From the IMG/VR virus record IMGVR_UViG_2778261461_000003: a DNA stretch of 5,192 nucleotides; one strand, written 5' to 3'. A program made the position numbers and the translations under genes. How positions within the stretch are numbered: the first letter of the stretch is position 1; each line of letters starts with the position of its first letter. The DNA comes from a virus. Taxonomy: Duplodnaviria > Heunggongvirae > Uroviricota > Caudoviricetes. Shown here piece after piece: positions 1,580 to 3,553 of this stretch. Below the pieces are notes generated by a model. That model searched no databases and was not told the DNA's origin. It was given only the letters and a program-made list of their open reading frames with translations.

Positions 1580-3553
1580 TTGCACGCCATTGGGTGGGTT
1601 AAGCATAAATGTATTCCTGGTGCTAAATGGCCCGAAATTCAGGCAGAGATGCGCATCTGGAAAAAACGTCGCGAAGGTGAACGCAAGGAAACCGGAAAAT
1701 ACACGTCTGTTGTTGATCTCGCCCGCGCCAGAGCCAATCAACAGTACACTGAAAATTCAACAGGAAAAATCAGCCCGGTCATTGCTGCCATTCATCGCGA
1801 ATACAAGCAGACATGGAAAACACTGGATGACGAACTGGCCTACGCTCTCTGGCCTGGTGATGTGGATGCCGGAAACATTGACGGCAGCATCCATCGCTGG
1901 GCAAAAAAAGAAGTTATCGACAACGACCGCGAAGACTGGAAGCGTATCTCGGCATCAATGCGCAAACAGCCTGATGCCCTTCGCTACGACCGCCAGACTA
2001 TTTTTGGCCTTGTCCGTGAGCGTCCGATCGACATTCACAAAGATCCCATAGCACTGAACAAATATATCTGCGAATACCTGACGACAAAGGGCGTGTTTGA
2101 GTTTGAGAATGAAGAAACAGACCTGGGCACTGTTGATGTTCTCCAGTCATCAGAAACACAAACTGATGCAGTGGAAACTGAGGTATCTGATATCCCAAAA
2201 AATGAAACCGCGCCGGAAGCTGAACCATCTGTAGAGCGTGAGGGGCCGTTCTATTTCCTCTTCGCAGATAAGGACGGAGAAAAATACGGACGCGCAAACA
2301 AACTTTCTGGTCTGGATAAGGCACTGGCTGCTGGCGCCACTGAAATCACAAAAGAAGAATATTTTGCCCGAAAAAATGGCACATACACGGGCTTACCGCA
2401 AAATGTAGATACCGCTGAAGATTCAGAACAACCAGAGCCGATAAAAGTTACCGCTGACGAAGTAAACAAAATTATGCAGGCAGCCAATATCAGCCAGCCT
2501 GACGCCGATAAGTTGCTTGCTGCATCACGTGGTGAATTTGTTGAAGGGATTAGTGACCCGAATGATCCGAAATGGGTTAAGGGGATCCAGACCCGCGATT
2601 CTGTGAACCAGAACCAGCATGAATCGGAACGGAACTACCAAAAAGCGGAACAAAACAGCACAAATGCGTTACAAAACGAGCCAGAAACGAAACAGCCTGA
2701 ACCAGTGGCGCAACAGGAAGTGGAAAAAGTCTGCACCGCCTGCGGTCAGACCGGCGGCGGCAACTGCCCTGATTGTGGCGCGGTGATGGGCGACGCAACA
2801 TACCAAGAAACATTCGATGAAGAGTATCAGGTTGAAGTTCAGGAAGATGATCCGGAGGAAATGGAAGGCGCTGAACATCCACACAAGGAGAACACTGGCG
2901 GCAATCAGCATCACAATAGCGATAATGAAACTGGCGAGACGGCAGATCACTCAATTAAGGTGAACGGTCATCACGAAATCACATCCACCAGCAGGACGTG
3001 TGACCATCTAATGATCGACCTTGAAACCATGGGAAAAAATCCTGATGCCCCGATCATCTCAATAGGTGCAATATTTTTCGATCCGCAAACCGGAGATATG
3101 GGACCGGAATTTAGTAAGACTATCGATCTGGAAACTGCTGGCGGAGTCATTGATCGGGACACCATTAAATGGTGGCTTAAGCAATCACGCGAAGCGCAAT
3201 CTGCCATTATGACCGATGAAATCCCGTTAGATGATGCACTGTTACAATTACGGGAATTTATCGACGAAAACTCCGGTGAATTTTTTGTTCAGGTTTGGGG
3301 AAATGGAGCCAACTTCGACAACACGATTTTGCGCCGTTCATACGAACGGCAGGGGATCCCCTGCCCGTGGCGTTACTACAACGATCGCGATGTACGCACA
3401 ATCGTTGAGCTGGGGAAAGCCATAGACTTCGATGCCAGAACGGCTATTCCATTCGAAGGTGAGCGCCATAATGCACTTGATGACGCCCGTTACCAGGCAA
3501 AATACGTTTCAGTTATCTGGCAAAAACTGATCCCGAGTCAGGCTGATTCTTAA
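1580..3553 (+). CDS. Multidomain putative 3'-5' exonuclease: N-terminal domain of unknown function, long acidic linker, 4-Cys zinc ribbon, C-terminal DnaQ-like DEDDh exonuclease domain
   Basis: 657-codon ORF with TAA stop at 3551..3553. Start is ambiguous: TTG at 1580 (GGAG 1570..1573, 6-nt spacer) or first in-frame ATG at 1649 (weak AGG/GAG upstream). The C-terminal ~180 aa carry the three DEDDh motifs in order: MIDLETMG (nt 3011..3034), VWGNGANFD (nt 3293..3319) and HNALDDARY (nt 3467..3493). A CxxC-x7-CxxC zinc ribbon ([15 protein letters not shown]) lies at nt 2732..2776. The region between about nt 2100 and 3000 is strongly acidic and E/Q/T/D-rich. No PD-(D/E)xK signature was seen, so it is not called a lambda Exo/RecE-type nuclease. 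Confidence 0.8.
   Translation: [657 protein letters not shown]

Follow-up and report, generated by a model that had tools for sequence, protein, structure and literature searches.

A ydfE-family exonuclease frame in a degraded Qin-type prophage of Escherichia coli is very probably a 5'-truncated deletion relic

The stretch of DNA analysed here (5,192 bp, hereafter the window; IMG/VR record IMGVR_UViG_2778261461_000003) is 100% identical to positions 1738987-1744178 of the Escherichia coli C1 chromosome (NZ_CP195942.1), where it lies within a degraded Qin-type prophage that is flanked by ydfJ and rspB, has partial portal and tail-fibre genes and carries an inserted IS3. Our subject is an open reading frame (ORF) of the ydfE family, which runs without interruption for 657 codons from a TTG at position 1580 to a stop codon at 3551-3553 and ends in a DEDDh-type 3'-5' exonuclease domain. 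An initial annotation, made from the letters of the window alone, had described this frame as a complete orphan gene beside xis. The genes and remnants of the window, as assigned by profile searches, by the Prokaryotic Genome Annotation Pipeline (PGAP) and by alignment with the genome of phage HannyBb, are these:

1-393, minus strand: Q antiterminator (PF06530; PGAP), on the nin-region side of the deletion.
396-1445, minus strand: ydfU, DUF968/HNH-like (PF06147, E=9e-77; PGAP), on the nin-region side of the deletion.
1447-1569, minus strand: 3' remnant of a small phage gene (PHROG 1212; PGAP partial coding sequence 'missing N-terminus'), on the left side of the deletion.
1564-1570, no strand: deletion junction with the 7-bp microhomology GTATCCG, seen as the overlap of two HannyBb alignments.
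1564-3553, plus strand: ydfE-family 3' remnant, codons 164-823 (HannyBb alignment; PGAP pseudogene 1565-3553 'missing N-terminus').
3626-3877, plus strand: excisionase gene xis (DUF1233; PF06806, E=1.6e-31; PGAP excisionase).
3912-5192, plus strand: Qin-type tyrosine integrase gene (Pfam Arm-DNA-bind_2 and Phage_integrase; PGAP), with rspB and rspA beyond.

Pfam and PGAP agree with the initial annotation that xis and int lie directly downstream of the exonuclease ORF. The stub upstream of ydfU matches positions 25-66 of the 66-position phrog_1212 profile (E=4.9e-20), and upstream of ydfU is the usual place of the PHROG 1212 gene. An Rfam scan of the window gave no match, and a repeat scan of the window found only short imperfect repeats of a chance-like kind.

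Searches of phage genomes with tblastn found the gene at 98.5-99.1% identity in HannyBb, PhiR42_1 and Tritos and at 87% identity in mEp460; the Tritos protein and the window protein are 98.5% identical. In HannyBb, mEp460 and Tritos the intact gene is annotated as 2,472 nt encoding 823 residues (CDS0033 in HannyBb, 'CP-933P exonuclease' in mEp460 and TRITO_27 in Tritos), and these orthologues occupy the slot directly upstream of xis-int, as does the window copy. The operon of the three phages reads cI/dicA, ydfA/B/C, dicF, dicB, ydfD, ydfE, xis, int; in intact lambdoid phages of the Qin/Tritos/mEp460/HannyBb type, the leftward early operon ends with ydfE before xis-int. PHROG 2082 ('exonuclease', 823 positions) gave an end-to-end match. 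The protein cluster of a full-length homologue (P0001) has 23,183 members and carries the precomputed Pfam assignments YdfE_N (PF27430), YdfE_C (PF27432) and Rv2179c-like. Of 5,426 complete E. coli genomes, 4,048 (about 75%) contain the segment encoding the DEDDh domain with a coverage of at least 80%, and 3,870 contain the 5' segment of ydfE. The ydfE family is thus a very common, catalogued prophage gene, carried by about three in four complete E. coli genomes as well as by several cultured temperate phages, and the window copy is an ordinary relic of it rather than a new system.

The E. coli K-12 copy (b1577) occupies the same rspB-side locus, in the Qin order dicA-ydfABC-dicF-dicB-ydfD-ydfE-IS2-intQ-rspB, and has suffered the complementary damage. 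K-12 ydfE retains residues 1-256, which are 100% identical to the HannyBb protein, and is then cut by IS2, whereas the window copy has lost codons 1-163 together with the whole upstream operon and has kept the body and tail of the gene.

The break in the window copy was located by alignment. In the alignments with HannyBb and mEp460 the window sequence bears no resemblance through nt 1563 and becomes near-identical at nt 1564. When BLAST was run against the whole HannyBb genome, window 396-1570 matched HannyBb 36329-35155 and window 1564-5192 matched HannyBb 27752-24130, the latter segment at 99.5% DNA identity. The two alignments share 7 nt, the microhomology GTATCCG, which is present in both parental sequences. 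HannyBb 27753-35154 (~7.4 kb) is missing from the window, and this segment holds ydfE codons 1-163, ydfD, dicB, the repressor/cro/cII genes, an O-like replication gene, ren and the hok/mok region. The TTG at 1580 is the internal codon Leu169 of the 823-residue gene, and the in-frame sequence upstream reaches a stop codon at 1535-1537 with neither ATG nor GTG between that stop and the TTG. A 200-nt probe spanning the whole junction was found in 3 of the 5,426 complete genomes, those of strains C1, TST3 and TBE6; thousands of other genomes matched the probe, none with a single site that covered 80% of it. Hence the point of divergence which the initial annotation had taken for a native gene boundary is the deletion junction (7-nt overlap, 3 of 5,426 genomes), and an intact ORF having ydfU as its native divergent neighbour is ruled out by the break at nt 1564, the 823-residue homologues and the rarity of the junction. 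What survives of the proposed 657-residue gene is the open frame at 1580-3553; its completeness does not survive the 823-residue relatives, the break and the PGAP pseudogene call, and the window copy lacks the complete 823-residue frame with native start and YdfE_N.

We consider it very probable (about 0.88) that the feature is a 5'-truncated pseudogene allele of ydfE left by a 7.4-kb deletion in a decaying Qin-type prophage. The proposed course of events is that this E. coli lineage underwent an illegitimate deletion of ~7.4 kb bounded by two GTATCCG copies, and that it would have removed ydfE codons 1-163, the operon promoter, dicB and ydfD, and the immunity, replication and hok/rem regions, thereby fusing the ydfE leftover to the gene stub beside ydfU. 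The 657-codon frame would still be open solely because the deletion is recent. That it is intact over this length is explained by the 99.5% DNA identity to the phage gene and not by demonstrated selection. In itself the feature is a minor one, a gene relic of prophage decay.

Over the shared part, the window and HannyBb proteins differ by three substitutions and a 2-codon insertion only. The insertion is in frame and falls at window 2096-2116, where FEFENEE stands in place of the FENEE of HannyBb and K-12-type sequences. Another assembly holds a 414-residue protein (P0124) that begins with the same truncated N-terminus and continues in frame into the last two-thirds of the integrase; it looks to have arisen from the same beheaded allele by a further deletion.

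The family from which the relic comes is of greater interest, and its architecture was examined in the window protein and in an AlphaFold2 (AF2) model built on the full-length 823-residue homologue P0001. The parts that remain in the window are these:

1580-1690, plus strand: tail of domain D1 (helices, full-length residues 169-205; Pfam YdfE_N region), the domain of the AF2 model that is cut by the deletion.
1808-2110, plus strand: D2, a helical domain (full-length residues 245-345) common to RecE-family proteins and confidently modelled by AF2.
2240-2374, plus strand: D3, a small beta-hairpin/helix module (EGPFYFLF...EEYFARK; full-length residues 388-435), modelled with a confidence score (pLDDT) of ~91.
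2501-2989, plus strand: RecE-like motif, CxxC-x8-CxxC and acidic disordered linker, near-identical to Rac-type RecE ~455-591.
3005-3520, plus strand: DexA/Rv2179c-like DEDDh 3'-5' exonuclease domain (PF16473, motifs, Foldseek and similarity to an EcD-like protein).

The catalytic domain is where the initial annotation had placed it. PF16473 (Rv2179c-like 3'-5' exoribonuclease domain) matches residues 476-647 of the window protein with E=1.7e-67 and 227 bits against a cutoff of 27, and the three motifs are in order: Exo I, MIDLETMG, at residues 478-485 (nt 3011-3034), Exo II, WGNGANFD, at residues 573-580 (nt 3296-3319), and Exo III, HNALDDARY, at residues 630-638 (nt 3467-3493). The catalytic residues D480, E482, D580, H630 and D635 are all present; these five are invariant or nearly so across the DEDDh-type homologues and are kept in comparisons with phage T4 DexA and with a protein resembling EcD, a stand-alone E. 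coli homologue. By sequence, DexA (8KEL/8KEN, E=1.5e-6) is the only solved relative. In the AF2 model the domain spans residues 640-820 with block pLDDT values of ~67-91, and its best matches in the PDB were DexA (8KEL), a Cas-associated DnaQ domain, RNase T and oligoribonuclease (Orn), each with a Foldseek probability of 1.00. The predicted C-terminal fold is DEDDh, and an objection to the annotation on the ground of fold fails. DexA and EcD are single-domain proteins, whereas in YdfE the DEDDh domain forms the C-terminus of an 823-residue RecE-like protein; they have in common the fold and all the catalytic residues. Because DexA and EcD act on DNA (PMC12153337), intact YdfE would be expected to do likewise, and homology indicates that the intact 823-residue protein should be a Mg2+-dependent 3'-5' DNA exonuclease made in lytic growth or upon induction. 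One 752-residue family member (P0231) has the Exo I glutamate changed to lysine (LMVDLKTMG) and the Exo II aspartate to alanine (SFAN), and is probably catalytically dead with the scaffold retained.

Upstream of the nuclease domain the protein is a RecE-family scaffold. BLASTP against a Rac-type RecE of 866 residues gave 40% identity over RecE 278-591 (E=5e-64), and a segment comprising a motif ending in DPNDPKW, the Cys4 motif and the acidic linker is nearly identical to RecE up to the start of the RecE nuclease domain. The NCBIfam ExoVIII equivalog model NF007259 scored 287 bits against a cutoff of 1269 and matched only at its non-catalytic profile positions 271-602; neither the window protein nor P0001 matched PF06630, the PD-(D/E)xK Exonuc_VIII domain. 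When the part outside the DEDDh domain (residues 1-470) served as query in an exhaustive HMMER search, only 191 representative clusters were returned. Among 54 long scaffold homologues, 33 carry Exonuc_VIII PF06630, 18 carry DUF3799 and 11 carry an Rv2179c-like DEDDh domain, and one protein (P0126) joins a Rac RecE N-terminus to a DEDDh domain. RecE and YdfE are homologous in the middle region and both are encoded in an early-left operon; where RecE has its PD-(D/E)xK nuclease, YdfE has a DEDDh domain of opposite polarity, and recE is followed by recT in vB_EcoS-673R7, whereas ydfE is followed directly by xis, with recT absent. A DexA-like DEDDh domain thus occupies the slot of the PD-(D/E)xK nuclease on a RecE-family scaffold, and the ydfE family is an instance of the RecE scaffold bearing nucleases of opposite polarity. 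Because its N-terminal and middle parts are RecE-family scaffold, the ydfE protein derives from a recombination module and is not an unrelated moron.

The model also accounts for the other parts that the initial annotation had listed. D1 (residues 1-205) is a single alpha/beta plus helical region with pLDDT >90, and PF27430 (YdfE_N) is confined to full-length or nearly full-length homologues; the unrecognised N-terminal domain of ~170 residues turned out to be the tail of D1, cut by the deletion, together with the helical D2 shared with RecE. D3 falls opposite a gap in the RecE alignment. The CxxC-x8-CxxC motif is at residues 385-399 (nt 2732-2776) and is followed by 14 acidic residues (D/E) in a stretch of 40, which bears out the acidic linker. 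The zinc ribbon fared less well: the four-cysteine motif is there, but it lies within a long segment (full-length residues ~500-636) modelled at pLDDT <50, and it occurs in only 7 of the 54 representative homologues. Those seven include both nuclease types, with four of them lacking a DEDDh domain, and a zinc ribbon acting as functional partner of the DEDDh domain was rejected on these grounds.

The absence of a single-strand annealing protein (SAP) beside the nuclease, a central claim of the initial annotation, proved correct and more general than the window. The window holds no gene for such a protein, and none is named in the whole HannyBb annotation. Pfam searches covering early-left ORFs, both in HannyBb and at 21 prophage loci of other Enterobacterales, found no annealing protein, nor did BLAST find a RecT homologue in any ORF of 46 related loci; the claim holds here, in HannyBb, mEp460 and Tritos, and in the 21 Enterobacterales loci. 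These 21 loci encode long DEDDh-type homologues with xis and/or int following them in 20 cases, and their upstream ORFs encode repressors, a Rrf2-type regulator (a recurrent ORF of 124 residues) and small proteins. The 124-residue ORF was considered as a hidden annealing protein and set aside as that regulator, and an apparent RecT fusion among the representatives (P0172), which shares 96% identity with Rac RecT, has the look of an artefact of recE-recT deletion.

The nuclease-only arrangement is already published. The 'Tritos' class of recombination (Rec) modules in Table 1 of PMC12315714 (Genome Res 2025) has a nuclease, no SAP, no single-strand DNA-binding protein, no anti-RecBCD function and many Chi sites, and the same paper records that lambdoid Rec modules can contain DnaQ-like 3'-5' nucleases. 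No gene of the Tritos operon other than the ydfE homologue is annotated as a nuclease, and ydfE defines this published class. The intact relatives of the window gene fit the class by the Tritos operon, the HannyBb annotation, the Pfam content of the operon ORFs and the Chi counts. HannyBb has 7 Chi octamers, five on one strand and two on the other, against ~1.4 expected. The window has 6 (GCTGGTGG or its complement), where ~0.16 would be expected in 5.2 kb, at 755 and 807 on the plus strand and at 1213, 1271, 1397 and 2985 on the minus strand; five of these lie inside ydfU, in both orientations, and the HannyBb ydfU homologue contains the same cluster (35321-35963). The cluster fits the Chi-rich Tritos class. 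The class itself is a working phage module, whereas the window is a deletion remnant in a cryptic prophage. The lambda Red (Exo/Bet) and RecET genes occupy the same early-left slot between the immunity region and xis/int; they differ from ydfE in nuclease fold and polarity, and ydfE is without an annealing partner.

The int-proximal prophage slot repeatedly houses a DEDDh nuclease domain. In most of the other prophages examined, the slot upstream of xis/int holds stand-alone DexA-like DEDDh genes of 184-226 codons whose products are 45-58% identical. Loci L048, L051, L052, L070 and others, from another type of Enterobacterales prophage, have their stand-alone DEDDh genes at ~6000-6600, with int absent or on the opposite strand in a few. 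Upstream of some of these lie ORFs of 274-276 residues and HD-domain-like ORFs, which inspection of the sequences alone likens to YfdQ and YfdR, and inspection of the same kind likens a 300-residue ORF of L070 to RdgC. In one Enterobacteriaceae prophage (L042, 2726-4128) the early-left operon encodes a DUF6932 protein and a 310-residue protein without Pfam match upstream of a DEDDh-type ydfE homologue; the two may be a moron or a defence-like pair.

As to what the intact protein does, we tentatively propose, at well below even odds, that it processes 3' DNA ends for host RecBCD/RecA-dependent recombination and replication. The setting would be the lytic growth of Chi-rich phages that have neither an annealing protein of their own nor a RecBCD inhibitor (Gam). 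The function of ydfE would help to account for replication and recombination in lambdoid phages that lack Gam and annealing proteins of the Red/RecET type. Rather than a RecE in decay, the combination of RecE scaffold and DexA-like DEDDh domain without recT might be a functional design in its own right, either as annealing-protein-independent end processing of Chi-rich phage DNA for host RecBCD/RecA or as EcD-like exclusion of modified DNA, a view that we hold as doubtful.

A different reading is that the intact ydfE family is mainly an anti-phage (superinfection exclusion) or anti-defence nuclease, of which the window would be a dead copy. The adjoining dicB reportedly protects against phages (Ragunathan and Vanderpool 2019), and about 75% of E. 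coli genomes carry ydfE, frequently within a cryptic prophage. EcD ('HREX') has been reported to protect against T4, and DnaQ-type nuclease genes outside a recognisable Rec module lie mostly near int or near cI (PMC12153337 and PMC12315714, respectively). A 189-residue EcD-like protein, recovered by means of the primers in the supplement of PMC12153337 and matching that paper at residue A78, shares 38% identity with the window domain (E=2e-34). This likeness to EcD/HREX weakly suggests a defence role for the intact protein. Two-thirds of YdfE is RecE scaffold, however, and in 33 of the 54 representatives that scaffold bears the ExoVIII recombination nuclease. The gene lies in the repressor-controlled early operon and would be silent in the lysogen. 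In PADLOC-DB v2 the window protein matched only a generic CRISPR-associated DEDDh model, and weakly (E=1.4e-5), and full-length P0001 had no match. The residues of DexA proposed for recognition of 5-hydroxymethylcytosine (5hmC), Trp W152 and the acidic D169 (PMC12153337), are not conserved: the window protein has Tyr aligned with W152 and Ala/Lys with no acidic residue around D169, in a loop where the alignment is uncertain. We regard a mainly defensive role as unlikely.

The EcD-like 189-residue protein (MIDTETLGNGPDAAIF...) also occurs on the IMG/VR viral contigs L010, L015, L025, L028 and L031, and because of these occurrences EcD itself is probably prophage-borne. Relative to the EcD-like genes the reverse primer of PMC12153337 has one extra A near the stop codon.

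Annealing-type, RecA-independent recombination is a further possibility, in which 3'-5' resection by the intact protein would expose 5' overhangs for pairing by host annealing functions or spontaneously, in analogy with XthA-dependent in vivo cloning. The RecE-family scaffold, the Rec-module position in the operon and the failure to find a phage SAP speak for it; against it, DnaQ-like exonucleases usually inhibit homologous recombination and of the 246 panel phages that have Rec-module genes just 9 are without an SAP (PMC12315714). We think this role quite improbable.

Several observations weigh against our reading of the window copy as a pseudogene from a nuclease-only recombination module. 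The frame runs for 657 codons without frameshift or stop, and TTG 1580 has a GGAG 6 nt before it, so that fortuitous translation from this codon is possible if a read-through transcript is present. Stand-alone homologous DEDDh proteins of ~190 residues occur, and the stand-alone homologue EcD is described as active (PMC12153337); N-terminal truncation therefore need not destroy catalysis, and the beheaded copy might still be active. DnaQ-type 3'-5' exonucleases, as noted above, usually inhibit homologous recombination (PMC12315714), and a literature search yielded no paper characterising ydfE. A scan for sigma-70-like promoters detected none in 1300-3950, and we think it most likely that the remnant, having neither its native start codon nor a recognisable promoter, is not expressed. 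We caution that a mechanically called ORF can pass for an intact 'orphan' gene when a TTG and a Shine-Dalgarno sequence happen to stand at its start.

The least probable reading is that a weak promoter or read-through still allows the truncated ORF to be expressed from TTG 1580, and that its product is an autonomous 3'-5' exonuclease that acts, for example, in EcD/HREX-like exclusion of phages with modified DNA. The open frame with its five catalytic residues, the GGAG at 6 nt, the common stand-alone DEDDh homologues directly upstream of xis/int, the 38% identity to the EcD-like protein (E=2e-34) and the reported T4 protection by EcD (PMC12153337) speak for it, but no promoter-like site was found for the ORF in 1300-3950, the DNA upstream runs antisense to Q and ydfU, a junction shared by just 3 of 5,426 genomes does not indicate spread or selection, the truncation runs through a domain that AF2 folds confidently, DexA W152 is replaced by Tyr with no acidic residue at the aligned D169, and PGAP calls the ORF a pseudogene, and we consider it very unlikely.

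Just left of the window in strain C1 (L001, 13250-14845, plus strand), an IS3 and a truncated lipocalin-family gene adjoin Q.

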